In this document: in pieces, positions 4,980 to 32,689 of the stretch | Layout of the letters: the number at the start of each line of letters is the position of its first letter | Numbering within the stretch: the first letter of the stretch is position 1 | Sequence record: MT764208.1 | Strand: one strand, 5' to 3' | Length of the DNA stretch: 64,000 nucleotides | Source of the DNA: Escherichia phage JEP8 | Notes under the pieces: model-generated | The model's database searches: none | Seen by the model: only the letters and a program-made list of their open reading frames with translations | Told to the model about the DNA's origin: nothing | Translations under genes and position numbers: made by a program

Positions 4980-6545
4980 ATGTTTAGTAGATTAAAAATG
5001 CTTGCGCGTTGGGCTGATTTTGACAACGACAAATACGAAGAACAAATTAAAGATAAAGCAGAGTCTATCGCCGCACCTAAAAACAATGATGGTGCTACGG
5101 AAGTAGAAATTAACGATAATTCACCTGCTAGCTCGTGGAACTCTCTTACCCAGCAATTTTACAGCACAGACCAGAAAATCAGCACAACTAAGCAATTAGT
5201 TAACACATATCGCGGTTTGATGAATAACCATGAAGTCGAAAACGCTGTACAAAATATCGTTAACGATGCGATTGTATTTGAAGAAGGTCATGAAGTTGTT
5301 TCATTAAATCTTGAGGCGACTGGCTTTAGTGAATCTGTAAAAGAGCGCATTCATGAAGAATTTAAAGATCTTTTAAACACTATCCAGTTTGATAGGCGCG
5401 GTCAGGATATGTTCCGTCGCTGGTATGTCGATTCGCGTATTTTCTTCCATAAAATCATCGGCAAAAATCCAAAAGATGGTATCGTAGAATTACGCCAGCT
5501 TGACCCACGTAATCTTGAATATGTTCGCGAGATCATTACAGAAGACACACCGGAAGGTAAAATTTATAAAGCAACGAAAGAATATTTCATTTACACCGTA
5601 GGCAATAGTTCTTATTGCGCGGGTGGTCAAGTATTCTCTCCCAATAGTCGCGTTAAAATCCCGCGTAGTGCTATTACATACGCTCACAGCGGCTTGATGG
5701 ATTGCGATGATAAATATATCATTGGTTATTTGCATCGGGCGGTTAAGCCAGCAAACCAGCTTAAATTGTTGGAAGACGCAATGGTCGTTTATCGTATCAC
5801 GCGTGCACCGGAACGCCGAGTGTTCTTTATTGATACCGGAAACATGAACAACCGCAAGGCTGCACAGCACATGAACTCAGTGGCACAGTCTTTTAAAAAC
5901 CGCGTTGTTTATGATGCATCGACTGGTAAACTTAAAAACCAGCAAGCAAATCTATCAATGACAGAGGACTACTGGTTACAGCGTCGAGATGGTAAAGCAA
6001 TCACCGACGTTACTACTTTACCCGGTGCATCCGGTATGAGTGATATCGATGATATTCGCTACTTTAACCGTAAGTTGTATGAAGCGTTGCGTGTGCCATT
6101 GTCACGTAGTAATCTCTCCGATGCTAATATGGTGATCGGTGGTGACGGTTCAGAAATTACTCGCGATGAGTTGGAATTTTCGAAATTCATTAGAACTCTG
6201 CAATCACAGTTTTCGGAAGTATTGCGCGATCCTCTGAAATATAATCTGATTCTCAAAAATGTAATTACGGAAGACGATTGGGATCGTGAAATAAATAATA
6301 TCAAGGTGGTTTTCCATCGGGACTCTTACTATACAGAAGTTAAAGACGCGGAAATTTTAGAACGTCGAATCGGTCTAATCGAACGTATTACACCTTACAT
6401 TGGTAAATATTTCTCTAACCAGACAGTGATGCGTGACATTCTGAAATATACCGATGACCAGATGGACACCGAGAAGAAACAGATCGAAGAAGAAGCGAAC
6501 GATCCGCGCTTTAAACAAACTCCCGATGAAATAGAGGATTTTTAA
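4980..6545 (+). CDS. 20: portal vertex protein (gp20-like)
   Basis: 521 aa in the T4 gene-20 position; conserved portal core. Confidence 0.93.
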   Translation: MFSRLKMLARWADFDNDKYEEQIKDKAESIAAPKNNDGATEVEINDNSPASSWNSLTQQFYSTDQKISTTKQLVNTYRGLMNNHEVENAVQNIVNDAIVFEEGHEVVSLNLEATGFSESVKERIHEEFKDLLNTIQFDRRGQDMFRRWYVDSRIFFHKIIGKNPKDGIVELRQLDPRNLEYVREIITEDTPEGKIYKATKEYFIYTVGNSSYCAGGQVFSPNSRVKIPRSAITYAHSGLMDCDDKYIIGYLHRAVKPANQLKLLEDAMVVYRITRAPERRVFFIDTGNMNNRKAAQHMNSVAQSFKNRVVYDASTGKLKNQQANLSMTEDYWLQRRDGKAITDVTTLPGASGMSDIDDIRYFNRKLYEALRVPLSRSNLSDANMVIGGDGSEITRDELEFSKFIRTLQSQFSEVLRDPLKYNLILKNVITEDDWDREINNIKVVFHRDSYYTEVKDAEILERRIGLIERITPYIGKYFSNQTVMRDILKYTDDQMDTEKKQIEEEANDPRFKQTPDEIEDF

Positions 6546-27894: not shown

Positions 27895-29946
27895 TTACAT
27901 TTTAAATTTATCTGGCATTGCGTCTACAGATACCAGATCAGCGATAAGCTGACGTAGAGTTGCCTTATCTGCTTTCTTACGTTCGGTTTTAGCTTCGCTA
28001 ATGAAGCTGGAGAAAGACAGGTCAGAAGCAGGTTTAATAACACCTTCACGGATGAATGCATCACCGTCTGCGATCATCTCGCCAGATTCTTGTAATGCTG
28101 CCAGTTCATTTTTGTTCATAATATGTGCCTCAATGTAATAAGTTTCTTGTGAATCCGTCGATGCCGTAGCACGAGTTACCGTATCAAAGGATAACACAAC
28201 ACCGCGAGGAAGTAAAATCTCGCATTCTTTGTAAGCAAATGCTTTGTTACCTACTGGCAATACAGGGATGTTTTCCGCGCCAGCAATGGAGAAAGCAACA
28301 TTAGCGCCACCTTCACCGCGAGAGCCAGCCATAGAATCTACACCAGCAACGGCACTAGCCACGTTTGCATTCCAGCCGCCAAAAATGTTAGGTGCAAGGG
28401 AAGTGCTCACATAGTTTTTAAAGTAAAACGCTTTTTGCTTACGTGCAGTTTCCCACATTTGCGACCGGAAGTCCATACCACGATACAGAATAGTACCAGG
28501 ATCAAGTTTAACACCATAGTTAGAGAAGGCATTATCCAGTGCATCGCACATCTTGACCAATTCTTCTGGATCTGCGATTCCCTCAAACTCTTCCAGCTTA
28601 CGATCAGTTAGGAAGTTGTTCATATTGATGTATGCTGCATCGGCATATTCGCTCAACACAAAACCTTCCGCGCCCGGCAGATCAAGATCAATATCTGCCA
28701 TCATTTCACCCATGTTGCTAGCAATTGCTTCAAACATACCGGACGCAACATTACGAAGGGCATCGGTTTTAATCTGGGTGATATGACTACGCAGCATTTC
28801 AGCTTTTACATCTGCTGGCATAGACTGGTCTACTCGATCCATTGCCAGGGCGGTGATCTTGTTTTCAAATACTTCCTCGCTCATGATTTCTTTTAAGCGT
28901 TTGATTGATGCTGCGATAACTTCCGCAGACAACGGATCATATTGATCCTGAACTTTTACCAGTTCGCTTACTGCGTATTTTGCATCGGCTTCGCTTTCAA
29001 AAATAGTACGCATGAAACCATAGCGAGTGATAATATCACTTGTCCAGTCATTCAGAGAACGGGCGGTTGAACGTTCTAAGGCTTGACGGTCAATCAGAGT
29101 ATTAAACTGTTTCTTAGGTTCTGCTTCGGTGATATCTTCTTCCGGTTTAAGATTAATTTTTTCTGGATGATTCACGTAGTCGCTGTTATAGGTCGCTTGA
29201 GTTTTCAGCATTTCTTCTTTAGTCAAACGAGATTTAGCCGCTACGCGTTGTTCTGCTTCCGCGTTTCGTTCTTCTTCTGACACAAGACTAGCCGCATACG
29301 CCTCATCTTTAGTCAGAGATTCACCAGTAGCCTTAGATACCCAGCGATCACCTAAATCACTTTCTACTTTAGTGAACAAGGATTCATCAAGTTTAATCCC
29401 TTTAATCTTATCAATCGCCATCCCGCGACGCTTGACAACAACTAAAGCGATCTTTTTGCTGGTCATTACTTCCTGCTGGAATACTTCAAACTTCGGTGTA
29501 CGACGCACCAAACGCTCTATAACGCGCTTAACCAGTTCGGTCTTACCTTTCATGCGGGATACGTTAAAACGGAACATAACAGCGTCTAATTGCGCTTTAC
29601 GGGCTGTTTCCATAACCACATCAAAAGCACTTGCCATAACTGCAATCGGGTTATCGCCTAGACCATTTTTAAGCTGTACAATACGACCGCTTTTGTTCAT
29701 TTCGCACAGTACAACATGTGCGGTTTTGTCACCCATACGAATGATTTTAGGTGTTTTGTTGGTGAAGTTACAAAGACGGACAATCACATCTTTATCGCGT
29801 GTCTGTACTGCAAAAAGCTGTTTAGGATTCTGCTTAGGCTTTAAGCACTGTACCGGAGCAATACTGCCAAAGTTTTCTTCCTCTTCCGTCAACAGCCATT
29901 TCTCGAAAGATTCAATCATTAGATCGTCGATTTCTAAGTTAAACAT
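27895..29946 (-). CDS. alt: Alt ADP-ribosyltransferase (packaged RNAP-modifying enzyme)
   Basis: 683 aa (T4 Alt is 682 aa); conserved ART motifs; located after gene 54 as in T4. Confidence 0.9.
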   Translation of the reverse strand: MFNLEIDDLMIESFEKWLLTEEEENFGSIAPVQCLKPKQNPKQLFAVQTRDKDVIVRLCNFTNKTPKIIRMGDKTAHVVLCEMNKSGRIVQLKNGLGDNPIAVMASAFDVVMETARKAQLDAVMFRFNVSRMKGKTELVKRVIERLVRRTPKFEVFQQEVMTSKKIALVVVKRRGMAIDKIKGIKLDESLFTKVESDLGDRWVSKATGESLTKDEAYAASLVSEEERNAEAEQRVAAKSRLTKEEMLKTQATYNSDYVNHPEKINLKPEEDITEAEPKKQFNTLIDRQALERSTARSLNDWTSDIITRYGFMRTIFESEADAKYAVSELVKVQDQYDPLSAEVIAASIKRLKEIMSEEVFENKITALAMDRVDQSMPADVKAEMLRSHITQIKTDALRNVASGMFEAIASNMGEMMADIDLDLPGAEGFVLSEYADAAYINMNNFLTDRKLEEFEGIADPEELVKMCDALDNAFSNYGVKLDPGTILYRGMDFRSQMWETARKQKAFYFKNYVSTSLAPNIFGGWNANVASAVAGVDSMAGSRGEGGANVAFSIAGAENIPVLPVGNKAFAYKECEILLPRGVVLSFDTVTRATASTDSQETYYIEAHIMNKNELAALQESGEMIADGDAFIREGVIKPASDLSFSSFISEAKTERKKADKATLRQLIADLVSVDAMPDKFKM

Positions 29947-30509: not shown

Positions 30510-30538
30510 ATTATAGGGGATCGATGATCCCCTGTCAA
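30510..30538 (-). promoter_or_regulatory. PeSL-type early promoter (TTGACA-GGGGATCatcGATCCCC-TATAAT)
   Basis: perfect -35 and -10 hexamers with 17-nt palindromic spacer; approximate. Confidence 0.6.
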
Positions 30539-30546
30539 CAAATTTT

Positions 30547-31083
30547 TTAGTTATTTTTTAATTGCTCATCTTGCAATAGGGCAATCACATGCTGGCGATG
30601 TTCTTCCGATTGAGGCACACCGAAAAAGTTTGTTTTGTAGAAATACTCTAATCGGTCTTCTCGTGTGCTCTCTTCCATCATGATCGCGGGTAGTCCGAGA
30701 TTTCGGAAACGTCGCTTTTCTGCTGGCGTAAAATCACTGTAATACAACATAGAATCATCATTACAAGCAATGCTAAACTCATCCTTCATAAAGGAGAATA
30801 TTGCGTTTAAACGCTGTTTACCGTCCACGATTTCGATCTCATAGCGAGAGCCATCATCAATCTTAGCCATTGCGATAGCACCAACCGGAAAATCATTAAT
30901 CAGGTTTTCGATAAACATACGTTTGTTTTCGGTGTCCCATACTAAAGGACGCTGATAATCTGGGTTCATGTTGATATAGCCATCTTCTAACCATGCATCA
31001 TAAACAGAGATGACAAAGTTTTTAGTATTGGTATAGTAACGGCGTTTAGGCGTTAAACGGCGTTTAGGCGTTAAACGGTTCAT
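30547..31083 (-). CDS. DUF262 / ParB-like nuclease-domain protein
   Basis: start placed at ATG preceded by AGGAG (MNRLTPKRR…); hallmark motifs …NPDYQRPLVW… and …EIVDGKQRLNAIF… (DGQQR-like); lacks any C-terminal HNH/DUF1524 module. Confidence 0.65.
   Translation of the reverse strand: MNRLTPKRRLTPKRRYYTNTKNFVISVYDAWLEDGYINMNPDYQRPLVWDTENKRMFIENLINDFPVGAIAMAKIDDGSRYEIEIVDGKQRLNAIFSFMKDEFSIACNDDSMLYYSDFTPAEKRRFRNLGLPAIMMEESTREDRLEYFYKTNFFGVPQSEEHRQHVIALLQDEQLKNN
31041..31076. repeat. exact 18-bp tandem duplication (GGCGTTTAGGCGTTAAAC x2) inside the DUF262 gene
   Basis: in-frame; encodes duplicated peptide LTPKRR-LTPKRR at the protein N-terminus. Confidence 0.8.
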
Positions 31084-31084
31084 G

Positions 31085-31414
31085 TTATAGTCTCCTGAAT
31101 GGATCATCACGTAAATCAATATCTTTTAAGAACTCATCCCATGAATGGCGGATGTTGTTCTTAATTCTCCAGATAAGAGCAGGGATTGAACGCTCTCCCA
31201 TCTGGAAGTATGGATCATATGATCCGTATGCCCAATATGCTACTACAATTCCACAATCAGCGCAATAGTATTCTATTTCACTTGCTGGCGACCAAAGTCC
31301 ATCAATATGATCGGTGATCTTGCTTTCGATGTTATGGCTATGACAATCAGGGCAACGGATGCAATGACCTTGTTTATCGTAATTTGACGTTAGCGAATAC
31401 TTAAACAATCTCAT
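31085..31414 (-). CDS. zinc-ribbon protein (two CxxC pairs)
   Basis: 109 aa; …CIRCPDCHSH…CADCG…; translationally coupled (TAATG) to the upstream methyltransferase-like gene. Confidence 0.45.
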   Translation of the reverse strand: MRLFKYSLTSNYDKQGHCIRCPDCHSHNIESKITDHIDGLWSPASEIEYYCADCGIVVAYWAYGSYDPYFQMGERSIPALIWRIKNNIRHSWDEFLKDIDLRDDPFRRL

Positions 31415-32130
31415 TATAGATCCTTATTTGCTTCAAATACTGCCTTTGCGAATCCTCGCGGGGTAAGTGACCTTATAGTCTTTGTTCTGGTTCCTTTCCC
31501 GCCTAGCTTAGAATGCTGTTTACTGTACCCTTTATTAATCTGCAACGGTTTCTTTTCTGGCATTATAAAGCCTTGTCCGGTCCATAAGCAAGTCTTTTTC
31601 GGGTACATATCACGGGCGGCAATATACTCAGGAAACGTAGGATGCTTATCATCTTCCGGCAAATAACCGCCATATTCCCACGGATGGAACATGTAATCAG
31701 GCTTACGCCACATGCTAGAGATAACGCTTACAGGATTCTCTATCATGTAGGGAACTCCGAGCCATTCACCCAAATAAGCGGTTATTTTAGCTGCCCGTAC
31801 ATCATGAACTTGAATCAATGGTCCTTGTTCTCGTTTCTTTCGTTCAAAGTGCGCAGCGCCACTAACAGCTAAATTGGTGCACGGTGGGAATGCAAAGATA
31901 ATATCCGGTTTCCCCCATTCAAGGTCCATTGCTCTTTCCAGCCAGTTCAAATCAATCCAGGTGTTTACATAGGTAATGTTTGGATGTTCAAATCTGGTAT
32001 TATACTTTTTGTATGTACCGTGGTCGGCGTCATCCGCATTAAAGCAGACTACCTTATGACCTGCTTTAGCCCATTCTAGCCCCATTATCCCCGATCCGTC
32101 AAAGTTGCAGAATATTAATTTTTGTTTCAT
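31414..32130 (-). CDS. C5-cytosine methyltransferase-like protein, truncated (catalytic motifs I, IV, VI only)
   Basis: 238 aa; motif I FCNFDGSGIMG, motif IV PDIIFAFPPCTNLAVSG (PC Cys), motif VI YMIENPVSV (ENV-like); colinear with the M.HhaI N-terminal half; no target-recognition domain or motifs IX/X visible. Confidence 0.6.
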   Translation of the reverse strand: MKQKLIFCNFDGSGIMGLEWAKAGHKVVCFNADDADHGTYKKYNTRFEHPNITYVNTWIDLNWLERAMDLEWGKPDIIFAFPPCTNLAVSGAAHFERKKREQGPLIQVHDVRAAKITAYLGEWLGVPYMIENPVSVISSMWRKPDYMFHPWEYGGYLPEDDKHPTFPEYIAARDMYPKKTCLWTGQGFIMPEKKPLQINKGYSKQHSKLGGKGTRTKTIRSLTPRGFAKAVFEANKDL

Positions 32131-32372
32131 ATACGACCCTTTAACCCAGCACAGATTTTAGTCGGTTCTTTACCGTGCCACATTAAGTAAAGTCCGTTAA
32201 TGCGACCTTGTTTTGTGTGTGATTCTTTTCTGATCTTCTTATAGTGTCGTGCTTCCTCAACCGATTGTTTAGAATACCAATCATAAAGGAAGAGGCACAA
32301 AGGCCAACCATTAGCGGCCTTAATGCAGTTATTAAGAAATTCCTTATTGCGTTTAATTAATTTTCTTTTCAC
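32127..32372 (-). CDS. hypothetical protein (81 aa)
   Basis: basic small ORF overlapping neighbours by 4 nt on both sides (operon member). Confidence 0.35.
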   Translation of the reverse strand: MKRKLIKRNKEFLNNCIKAANGWPLCLFLYDWYSKQSVEEARHYKKIRKESHTKQGRINGLYLMWHGKEPTKICAGLKGRI

Positions 32373-32620
32373 GCTGCCCCCATTGGTTTGATAGTAACAG
32401 AATCTAAAAGACCTTTGTTAGCCAGTTCGCGGCAAGTTTTCAGATCCGCAACTTCCCAGCCAGCCGCAATCAGGTTATCAATCAGGCTGTTAGCAACTTC
32501 TTCGCTCATGAAAGAGCACTGTTTGCCGATGGTGTAGCGTACACGCTGTAATTTCAGTTTACGGAAGCCTTTAACGTTCAGGTCTTTAGCGATTTTCTTT
32601 GCGGTTTCGATGTTAGCCAT
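32369..32620 (-). CDS. hypothetical protein (83 aa), first gene of cassette
   Basis: ORF directly downstream of a PeSL-type promoter. Confidence 0.4.
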   Translation of the reverse strand: MANIETAKKIAKDLNVKGFRKLKLQRVRYTIGKQCSFMSEEVANSLIDNLIAAGWEVADLKTCRELANKGLLDSVTIKPMGAA

Positions 32621-32660: not shown

Positions 32661-32689
32661 ATTGTAGGGGAGTTATCCTCCCCTGTCAA
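32661..32689 (-). promoter_or_regulatory. PeSL-type early promoter (TTGACA-GGGGAGgataaCTCCCC-TACAAT)
   Basis: minus-strand; palindromic 17-nt spacer; approximate. Confidence 0.55.

Follow-up and report, generated by a model that had tools for sequence, protein, structure and literature searches.

We consider it about 70% probable that the five-gene block at positions 30547-32620 of Escherichia phage JEP8 is a PeSL-bounded mosaic early unit, in which the 238-aa protein is a Dcm-like DNA methyltransferase that acts independently of partners and the other genes are separate. The basis of this explanation in JEP8 is gene structure, predicted folds, conserved residues, homology and gene distribution, while the literature on a homologue with 56% identity provides the formation of 5-methylcytosine (5mC) on DNA and the triggering of a retron; for the 238-aa copy itself, we infer activity, biological role and sequence specificity. 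What had been supposed to be a new split modification system gives way to a more ordinary picture, in which the methyltransferase is one more example of an enzyme that is very common among phages. The window referred to below is the whole stretch of DNA analysed, 64,000 nucleotides of sequence record MT764208.1.

Organization of the block and its promoters

Read from the sequence, the five ORFs lie on the minus strand between two PeSL-type early promoters (Table 1). The upstream PeSL, TTGACAggggaggataactcccctACAAT, is a promoter of sigma70 consensus whose spacer contains a G/C stem-loop. The downstream PeSL, located just 3' of the block, has a promoter match of 12/12 and, as a predicted promoter, would both end the block and drive the next gene. 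The features of the PeSL regulatory cassette (sigma70 -35 and -10 elements, a G/C-rich stem-loop in the spacer, and variable ORFs flanked by the element) were found at both sites, and PeSLs of the same type are also present in contigs L098 and L099. PeSLs are known from phages RB49 and phi1, and PeSL-mediated shuffling has been documented (Arbiol et al. 2010, PMC2839356).

Table 1. Positions of the genes, promoters and repeat of the block in the window
Feature	Coordinates	Strand	Details
Upstream PeSL	32661..32689	-	TTGACA, 17 nt, TACAAT; GGGGAG/CTCCCC stem-loop in spacer
83-aa gene	32369..32620	-	ATG start; RB49p190, PHROG 14908
81-aa gene	32127..32372	-	GTG start; RB49p189.1, PHROG 7065
238-aa C5-cytosine methyltransferase gene (predicted)	31414..32130	-	RB49p189, PHROG 757
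109-aa zinc-ribbon gene	31085..31414	-	RB49p188, PHROG 2993
178-aa DUF262/ParB-like gene	30547..31083	-	ATG at 31083; RB49p187
Tandem duplication, 18 bp, perfect	31038..31078		inside the 178-aa DUF262 gene
Downstream PeSL	30510..30538	-	TTGACA, 17 nt, TATAAT; GGGGATC/GATCCCC stem

The first-pass annotation had described a minus-strand set of 83, 81, 238, 109 and 178 aa downstream of a PeSL, and this set is present as described. Its claim that all of the genes overlap by 4 nt or 1 nt stands for the first three junctions, which are GTGA (4-nt overlap, 83 aa/81 aa), ATGA (4-nt overlap, 81 aa/238 aa) and TAATG (1-nt overlap, 238 aa/109 aa), but fails for the 109-aa/178-aa pair, which is separated by a 1-nt gap (TAAcATG).

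The block matches 56 Krischvirus genomes at 95-99% identity, and RefSeq annotates all five ORFs under the RB49 designations of Table 1. Because the pN/pS ratio relative to other Krischvirus genomes is 0-0.25 for every one of the five ORFs (0 for the 83-aa protein), which indicates purifying selection, we regard them as real genes and not chance ORFs. The block appears to be an early transcription unit in a hyperplastic region of an RB49-like (Krischvirus) genome. Most Krischvirus genomes have retained all five genes; this retention and the translational coupling of the ORFs would also fit cooperation among the products, and are points against our explanation.

A short Dcm-like methyltransferase

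The 238-aa protein belongs to a widespread and previously studied family, the short "Dcm-like" C5-cytosine DNA methyltransferases of phages, and its existing annotation in RefSeq and the BASEL collection is that of a DNA or "Dcm-like" methyltransferase. The family comprises 7,322 sequence clusters, all of about 225-260 aa, and the protein matches PHROG 757 over residues 1-237 (E 8.1e-91). Its motifs occur in the order I (FDGSG), IV (PPC84T) and VI (E131-N-P), followed by Lys178/179. These positions were assigned by eye, the reference being what we take to be the motifs of M.HhaI and DNMT3A. The 51 aligned sequences of the family all have C84, E131 and K178, and K179 is conserved in at least 90% of them; PPCT, ENP and LGGK..TK.IRSLT.R are likewise invariant. 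The position of the target-recognition domain (TRD) is occupied by only about 25 residues, from the PKKTCLWTG segment to LGGK..TK.IRSLTPRG, and in the family alignment the motif VIII QxRxR is absent from the protein, which has PKKT instead.

The PF00145 score of the 238-aa protein is 15.2 bits relative to a cut-off of 22 (E 0.014) and concerns only the N-terminal 90 residues; this sub-cut-off score, and the lack of a recognisable TRD or QxRxR, are also points against our explanation. Motifs I-IV are covered by the Pfam and hhalign alignments, the latter having been made with an approximate M.HhaI sequence, of which only motifs I-IV aligned at low probability, so that it serves as a lead only. 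Searches of PDB sequences with the protein and with its 51-member profile returned no useful match, and NCBIfam had no match for four of the five block proteins. The link to the C5 methyltransferases came only from fold comparison. The AF2 model (pLDDT 92) has the C5-methyltransferase catalytic-domain fold and resembles the DNMT3-type catalytic domain, and a natural C5-carboxymethyltransferase is among its best structural matches. The fold, Cys84, Glu131 and the family alignment bear out the earlier description of a protein with C5-methyltransferase motifs I, IV and VI that lacks a TRD.

A full-length homologue with 56% identity (E 2e-92) is encoded by bas06_0055 (711 bp, 236 aa) of phage KarlJaspers (Bas06). 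The K42 enzyme is near-identical to this KarlJaspers Dcm-like methyltransferase and, when expressed alone from a plasmid, raises 5mC on the msDNA of retron Ec86 and activates Ec86 (bioRxiv 10.1101/2023.08.16.553469). In the same work the 5mC was identified by LC-MS, the substrate being msDNA, a single-stranded DNA hairpin, whereas CCWGG as the K42 Dcm site is an assumption taken from E. coli Dcm and not a measurement (bioRxiv 10.1101/2023.08.16.553469). Residues C82, E128, K175 and K176 of K42 Dcm align with C84, E131, K178 and K179 of the 238-aa protein. The block had been thought to be uncharacterised, which no longer holds for the methyltransferase, given that a 56%-identical homologue methylates DNA and triggers retron Ec86. 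No homologue of the other four block genes was found in the non-structural half of the KarlJaspers genome.

On the mechanism we propose, S-adenosylmethionine would be held by the motif I FDGSG, and a flipped cytosine would be attacked at C6 by Cys84 of PPC with the help of Glu131 of ENP and of Lys178/179. Methylation at C5 would occur early in infection, restricted to certain sites in the DNA, and no phage partner would be required. The likely benefit is that phage DNA would be protected during replication against a cognate restriction enzyme of the host, and the known cost is that methylation of such a type sets off retron Ec86 in hosts carrying it.

Analysis of DNA of the Krischvirus TB34 by HPLC/MS detected no modified nucleosides (PMC13390438), and RB49 DNA is likewise reported as unmodified; the DNA of the 238-aa gene in TB34 shows 98% identity to that in JEP8. 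The window contains 27 CCWGG sites, about 0.2% of its cytosines if CCWGG is, hypothetically, the target. The TB34 result is compatible with sparse methylation sites and lends no positive support to activity. Krischvirus SAP, on the other hand, is reported to contain hmC/glucosyl-hmC. Across the block SAP and TB34 have identical coding sequences, and the only differences are a 79-bp duplication of the downstream PeSL in SAP and two indels of a single T each in intergenic tracts, so that the block offers no obvious explanation for the difference in modification between these two phages.

From the DNA methylation and Ec86 triggering by the homologue, two predictions follow: Krischvirus phages may be sensitive to Ec86-type retrons, and their DNA may contain 5mC at so few sites that it would escape bulk HPLC. 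Krischvirus phages are used in phage-therapy cocktails.

The neighbouring proteins and their linkage

The 178-aa protein matches GmrSD_N (PF03235) with 72.5 bits (E 6.6e-20; cut-off 33.2) and contains the motifs YQRPLVW, DGKQR and N..G. Residues Q44, R45, W49 and D87-R91 are invariant in the alignment of DUF262 homologues, and N152 and G155 nearly so. Its AF2 model (pLDDT 90.6) has a ParB/Srx fold, with Foldseek matches to Noc, ParB, PadC, BrxU, Srx and SspE. PADLOC matched it to NsnA (E 6.5e-20, positions 48-187 of a 385-position profile), and a further match in the defence library was to PD-T4-2_A (E 5.8e-12); in longer proteins of phages and defence systems, it corresponds to the N-terminal ParB core alone. 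A Pfam search of the five block proteins gave no nuclease family match at E<=1 in any of them. The fold, the above-threshold Pfam score and this negative search agree with the first-pass annotation, which had seen a stand-alone DUF262 protein unaccompanied by an HNH/DUF1524 partner. The 18-bp duplication gives the protein an additional N-terminal RLTPKR, the length being 172 aa in other Krischviruses. Several T4-like lineages, RB43 and Slopekvirus among them, encode homologues with about 35% identity, and we propose that the protein is a minimal nucleotide-binding ParB/DUF262 domain that also occurs in other T4-like phages whose cytosine is reportedly unmodified.

The double-CxxC zinc ribbon that had been recognised in the 109-aa protein is confirmed by two conserved CxxC pairs: Cys21, Cys24, Cys51 and Cys54 are invariant in homologues from Krischvirus, Nonagvirus, Felixounavirus and Jedunavirus. 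The four cysteines are followed by a conserved WAYGxYxP motif, and the Pfam zinc-ribbon matches are below the cut-off. In the phage database, the 83-aa protein occurs in Krischvirus only. Its homologues with 73% and 57% identity adjoin zinc-ribbon homologues in L098 and L099, and the 83-aa protein is the most persistent neighbour of the zinc ribbon. PADLOC gave it a weak match (E 2.6e-5) to the C-terminal part of RT_UG35. The 81-aa protein is dispensable, because some Krischviruses, pEJ01 (L097) and L006, are missing the gene.

The taxonomic distribution differs from gene to gene across the block. Of 80 viral methyltransferase loci, 78 have none of the other four genes within 6 kb of the methyltransferase homologue, and the 2 that have any are both from Krischvirus. 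Elsewhere the neighbours of the methyltransferase homologue include helicases and HNH proteins, and a conserved partner gene was not found among the 80 loci. In three phage contigs (L045, L046 and L048) the start of the methyltransferase homologue is overlapped by the gene for an unrelated 63-aa double-CxxC protein. The DUF262 homologues of RB43, a Slopekvirus and two metagenomic phages have neither zinc-ribbon nor methyltransferase neighbours, and the zinc-ribbon homologues of Nonagvirus, Felixounavirus and Jedunavirus are in unrelated gene contexts, in which no 83-aa-like neighbour was found. The diverged relative L098 has the arrangement 83aa-81aa-Zn-46aa-DUF262 and no methyltransferase, and the T4-like L099 and L100 have PeSL-83aa-Zn only.

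The first-pass annotation had proposed a single split module of cooperating proteins, and had named dispersal of the five genes in related phages as evidence against it. Dispersal is what we found outside Krischvirus, with variant blocks in close relatives, and the proposal is not supported. Because the distributions differ and relatives carry partial versions of the block, it appears to be a PeSL-shuffled mosaic of independently distributed accessory genes and not one multi-protein system.

Alternative readings and known systems

That all five genes nevertheless form one modification or anti-restriction module, with the zinc ribbon and/or DUF262 protein targeting a TRD-less methyltransferase core, is highly improbable. 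The tight coupling of the ORFs, the roughly 25 residues at the TRD position and the 63-aa double-CxxC protein overlapping some methyltransferase starts would suit such a module, but K42 Dcm is active alone from a plasmid, the partners are missing at 78/80 loci, and the five genes differ in taxonomic distribution. In L098 the zinc ribbon and DUF262 are present without the methyltransferase, and L099 has only the 83-aa protein and zinc ribbon. The distribution data seem already to have largely ruled this reading out. We also think it very unlikely that the 238-aa protein is something other than a DNA 5mC methyltransferase, acting on RNA or single-stranded DNA, forming another C5 adduct by use of another cofactor or an aldehyde, or having an hmC-type role as in SAP. 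Such a function could account for the absent TRD and the replaced motif VIII arginines, for the C5-carboxymethyltransferase among the structural matches, for the hairpin substrate of K42 Dcm and for the unexplained modification pathway of SAP. It is opposed by the plain 5mC that LC-MS identified for the K42 homologue, by the coding sequence shared between SAP (modified) and TB34 (unmodified), which differ by the 79-bp PeSL duplication, and by the reports that RB49 and TB34 DNA is unmodified.

A different proposal, which we judge unlikely, is that the DUF262 protein, possibly with the 83-aa protein and zinc ribbon, is a counter-defence factor independent of the methyltransferase, a nuclease-less ParB-DUF262 copy that would poison or titrate GmrSD/BrxU, Menshen NsnA or SspE/DndB-type systems. 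Its best defence-library matches are NsnA and PD-T4-2_A, it consists of the N-terminal ParB core only, its gene is one of the early genes of an accessory region, and it has been kept at about 35% identity across several T4-like lineages. However, the invariant NTP-binding motifs (QR, DGKQR and N..G) point to an enzyme or switch that is active, rather than to a passive decoy, and RB49 and TB34, with their reported unmodified cytosine, are not GmrSD substrates. DUF262 occurs together with the 83-aa and zinc-ribbon genes in close relatives only, where synteny alone may explain the association. It is decidedly unlikely that the 83-aa protein and zinc ribbon (with DUF262 in Krischvirus and L098) form a small counter-defence unit of hmC-lacking T4-like phages into which the methyltransferase was inserted secondarily; it might work, for instance, as a ParB-DUF262 decoy or an NTP-dependent switch that blinds the DUF262-based DNA sensors of the host (Menshen, BrxU/GmrSD, Ssp/Dnd).

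The preferred reading, a mosaic early unit with a partner-independent methyltransferase, can be set against several known systems. Relative to the canonical C5 methyltransferases (PF00145; M.HhaI, E. coli Dcm, DNMT3A/B), the 238-aa protein is about 90-100 residues shorter, lacks a TRD, has PKKT in place of the motif VIII QxRxR and falls below the PF00145 cut-off. With the K42 and KarlJaspers Dcm it has in common the catalytic Cys, Glu and Lys-Lys, the TRD-less architecture and the DNMT3-type resemblance, although KarlJaspers is a siphovirus of the Drexlerviridae and JEP8 a T4-like myovirus, and the gene neighbourhoods differ. The 178-aa protein shares with GmrSD/BrxU and Menshen NsnA the DUF262 N-terminal ParB-like domain and all three conserved motifs. 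Unlike the GmrSD type IV restriction enzymes, it has no fused or adjacent DUF1524/HNH among the block genes, and unlike Menshen (NsnABC), it has no ParBDB C-terminal domain and no NsnB ABC-ATPase or NsnC effector beside it. It is a single-domain protein of 170-180 aa in a lytic phage, and its neighbours are small phage ORFs. The PeSL-flanked ORFan modules of RB49 and phi1 (PMC2839356; PMC4122927) have the same brackets of early promoter and stem-loop, and the gene content of the relatives likewise varies at PeSL boundaries, a PeSL being duplicated in SAP. No difference in kind separates the block from those modules, and it looks like one more instance of this known architecture.

Layout of the block and its promoters

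The window is a Krischvirus genome, from an RB49-like T4-type coliphage, and 56 Krischvirus genomes match the 2.4 kb around the block at 95-99% identity; the 238-aa protein has an identical counterpart in the protein database that is named from phage JEP8. The five minus-strand ORFs lie exactly where the first-pass annotation placed them, and each has an RB49 counterpart. Their junctions, read from the sequence in gene order, are GTGA, ATGA, TAATG and TAAcATG. The first three pairs show the tight overlaps described earlier (4, 4 and 1 nt); the 109-aa and 178-aa genes, also thought to overlap, are separated by a one-base gap. Because pN/pS is 0-0.25 for all five ORFs wherever they differ from five other Krischvirus genomes, they are genuine genes. 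The PeSL-type promoter sequence proposed ahead of the ORFs was confirmed, and a second PeSL follows them. In RB49 and phi1, PeSLs are described as an early promoter plus stem-loop and as mediators of modular shuffling (PMC2839356).

Genes and promoters of the block, in window coordinates
Feature	Coordinates	Strand	RB49 counterpart	Description
Upstream PeSL	32689-32661	-		sigma70 consensus + G/C stem-loop in spacer
83-aa ORF	32369-32620	-	RB49p190	
81-aa ORF	32127-32372	-	RB49p189.1	
238-aa ORF	31414-32130	-	RB49p189	methyltransferase
109-aa ORF	31085-31414	-	RB49p188	zinc ribbon
178-aa ORF	30547-31083	-	RB49p187	DUF262
Downstream PeSL	30538-30510	-		sigma70 consensus + G/C stem-loop in spacer

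Directly downstream of the block region is a gene for a 683-aa Alt-like ADP-ribosyltransferase (window 27895-29946 and upstream), so the block belongs to the hyperplastic region near alt. RB49 has another ADP-ribosyltransferase paralogue after the Alt-like gene (RB49p183/p184).

The 238-aa cytosine methyltransferase

The 238-aa protein had been described as having methyltransferase motifs and no target-recognition domain. That description is accurate, the motifs being conserved and only ~25 residues occupying the position of the domain. The Pfam model PF00145 gives a sub-threshold match to the N-terminus only (E 0.014, 15.2 vs 22 bits); PHROG 757 ("DNA methyltransferase") spans the protein end to end (E 8e-91). 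Its relatives form 7,322 clusters in the protein database, all about 225-260 aa. Among 51 of these in our alignment, the PPCT tetrad, E-N-P, K178, T180, W183 and the C-terminal LGGK..TK.IRSLT.R are invariant, and FDGSG is at least 90% conserved; no QxRxR motif VIII was found in the 238-aa sequence. Given the end-to-end PHROG 757 match and the conserved motifs, the protein has the fold of a C5-cytosine methyltransferase catalytic domain and retains both its nucleophilic Cys and the Glu of motif VI.

The suggestion that the block was not characterised fails for the methyltransferase, a homologue of which has been studied as a trigger of retron Ec86. In phage K42, which is 95.4% identical to KarlJaspers/Bas06, a 711-bp dcm gene was disrupted in all escapers from Ec86. 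K42 Dcm expressed alone was toxic only with the retron in the cell and raised msDNA 5mC by LC-MS, and a C82A/E128A/K175A/K176A mutant was inert; the enzyme thus produces 5mC on DNA without phage partners and activates Ec86. Its CCWGG specificity was taken over from E. coli Dcm, not measured (all bioRxiv 10.1101/2023.08.16.553469). The 711-bp gene in the fetched KarlJaspers genome is bas06_0055, whose product shares 56% identity with the 238-aa protein over the whole length (E 2e-92), and C84, E131, K178 and K179 align with the residues mutated in inert K42 Dcm. The 238-aa protein thus belongs to a family in which one enzyme is known to methylate DNA unaided by any phage partner. The copies in BASEL-collection phages are already annotated as "Dcm-like C5 cytosine methyltransferase".

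We infer that the 238-aa protein is active as a C5 DNA methyltransferase, needs no partner and modifies a limited set of sites; its gene would be expressed early from the PeSL. Its methylation may protect phage DNA from some host restriction enzyme and would expose the phage to Ec86-type retrons. RB49 has been treated as a phage with unmodified cytosine (PMC4041780), and HPLC/MS of TB34 DNA gave no modified nucleoside (PMC13390438); in TB34 the gene has 98% nucleotide identity to the copy here. Both reports would fit sparse methylation, and they show no more than that. If CCWGG were the target, its 27 sites in the 64-kb window would correspond to roughly 0.2% of cytosines methylated. This count represents a roughly two-fold depletion (51.9 ± 6.9 expected from dinucleotide-preserving shuffles of the window), which would fit avoidance of restriction as well as deamination of 5mC and is not decisive.

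Phage SAP is reported to carry hmC/glucosyl-hmC, whereas TB34, 99.96% identical, has plain cytosine (PMC13390438). The block coding sequences are identical between the two. In this region the PeSL immediately after the DUF262 gene is duplicated in SAP (79 bp, 1080-1158 of comparison locus L003 vs L004; insertion point at window 30478), and two single-T indels fall in intergenic T-runs; the two phages do not otherwise differ there.

The DUF262, zinc-ribbon and small proteins

Assignment of the 178-aa protein to DUF262 was borne out by a GmrSD_N/DUF262 match passing the Pfam cut-off (E 6.6e-20); PADLOC matches were NsnA and PD-T4-2_A. Q44, R45, W49 and D87-G-K-Q-R91 are invariant among homologues, and N152 and G155 nearly so. 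The structural model (pLDDT 90.6) matches Noc, ParB, PadC, BrxU, sulfiredoxin and SspE, and the protein consists of a full minimal ParB/DUF262 nucleotide-binding domain without any further parts. Homologues of ~35% identity occur in RB43/RB16, Slopekvirus (KP27-like), Cronobacter and Enterobacter T4-like phages and a few others; Tequatrovirus and Mosigvirus probably lack the gene, since the number of Escherichia matches approximates that of Krischvirus genomes. A perfect 18-bp tandem duplication (window 31038-31078) gives a second RLTPKR at the N-terminus, and the protein has 178 aa here vs 172 aa in all other Krischvirus copies seen; no exact match to the longer form was found in the protein database. 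The most attractive hypothesis for the non-methyltransferase genes, if an improbable one, is that a nuclease-less ParB-DUF262 protein disturbs the DUF262-based sensors of the host.

In RB43, a Slopekvirus and a metagenomic T4-like contig, a stand-alone DUF262 gene follows nudE at a distance of a few genes (L088 2074-4019; L089 2071-4010; L085 3713-5561), and a conserved protein of ~80-85 aa (M.TVDF..LS..GLLWKIN..ILHPLGLAL) is encoded one or two genes ahead of the DUF262 gene. This neighborhood is unlike that in Krischvirus.

The double-CxxC zinc ribbon noted in the 109-aa protein stands: C21, C24, C51 and C54 are invariant among homologues, and these cysteines and a conserved WAYGxYxP motif are common to those in Nonagvirus, Felixounavirus and Jedunavirus. 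No informative matches were found for the 83-aa and 81-aa proteins. PADLOC gives the 83-aa protein one match that is weak though not trivial (E 2.6e-5), to positions 722-785 in the C-terminal part of the defense reverse transcriptase model RT_UG35. It is nearly invariant in Krischvirus, with zero amino-acid changes in five genomes compared, and its gene is always the first after the PeSL. In the phage database it is restricted to Krischvirus; the range of the 81-aa protein extends to T5-like and Dhakavirus-type phages.

Gene content in relatives and comparison with known systems

The genes had been suggested to form one module, with dispersal in related phages named as grounds for rejecting it. 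They are indeed dispersed in relatives: any of the other four genes lies within 6 kb of a methyltransferase homologue in 2 of 80 viral contigs, both Krischvirus, and none does in the remaining 78. In other viral contigs the methyltransferase gene adjoins genes for helicases, HNH proteins or DNA polymerase and miscellaneous small ORFs. With the block as blastn query, ~580 non-Krischvirus phage records, including Dhillonvirus, Drexlerviridae, Vequintavirus and Kagunavirus, were reached via the methyltransferase segment only, and the fetched non-structural half of KarlJaspers contained no homologues of the other four genes. Neither a methyltransferase nor a zinc-ribbon gene neighbors the DUF262 homologues of RB43, a Slopekvirus and two metagenomic phages, and zinc-ribbon homologues in other genera adjoin dUTPase, DHFR/thymidylate synthase or helicase genes.

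In three 28-141 kb contigs of a different lineage (L045, L046 and L048, ~5980-6020), the gene for an unrelated 63-aa protein, which contains two CxxC pairs (MQKVVCDWMECDNCG...), shares 18 nt with the start of a methyltransferase homologue. The arrangement is a second, independent zinc-ribbon/methyltransferase adjacency.

Diverged relatives are the most telling evidence on the module question. L098, a 2.6-kb metagenomic contig, has in order the 83-aa (73% identity), 81-aa (68%) and zinc-ribbon (67%) genes, a 46-aa ORF, DUF262 (55%) and a PeSL, and lacks the methyltransferase gene. The T4-like ligase-to-alt region of L099 (with L100) holds a PeSL, the 83-aa gene (57%) and the zinc ribbon (39%) and no other block genes, making a two-gene PeSL cassette in L099. 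Krischvirus pEJ01 and contig L006 have no 81-aa gene, and the 83-aa gene directly overlaps the methyltransferase start. Because these relatives differ in gene content, the block is a mosaic, in which the 81-aa gene is optional. A methyltransferase gene was seen in the Krischvirus version of the block alone; the three diverged relatives examined have none. The most persistent association is that of the 83-aa and zinc-ribbon genes, whose adjacency recurs in increasingly distant T4-like contigs (L098 20-833; L100 754-1302; L099 4938-5513) and therefore suggests a functional pair or old synteny; the association may reflect inherited gene order.

The block exemplifies the PeSL-flanked accessory module, an architecture already known, and is not a new system. 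Its methyltransferase is a new member of a known, partly characterized family and is accompanied by uncharacterized small proteins of known fold classes.
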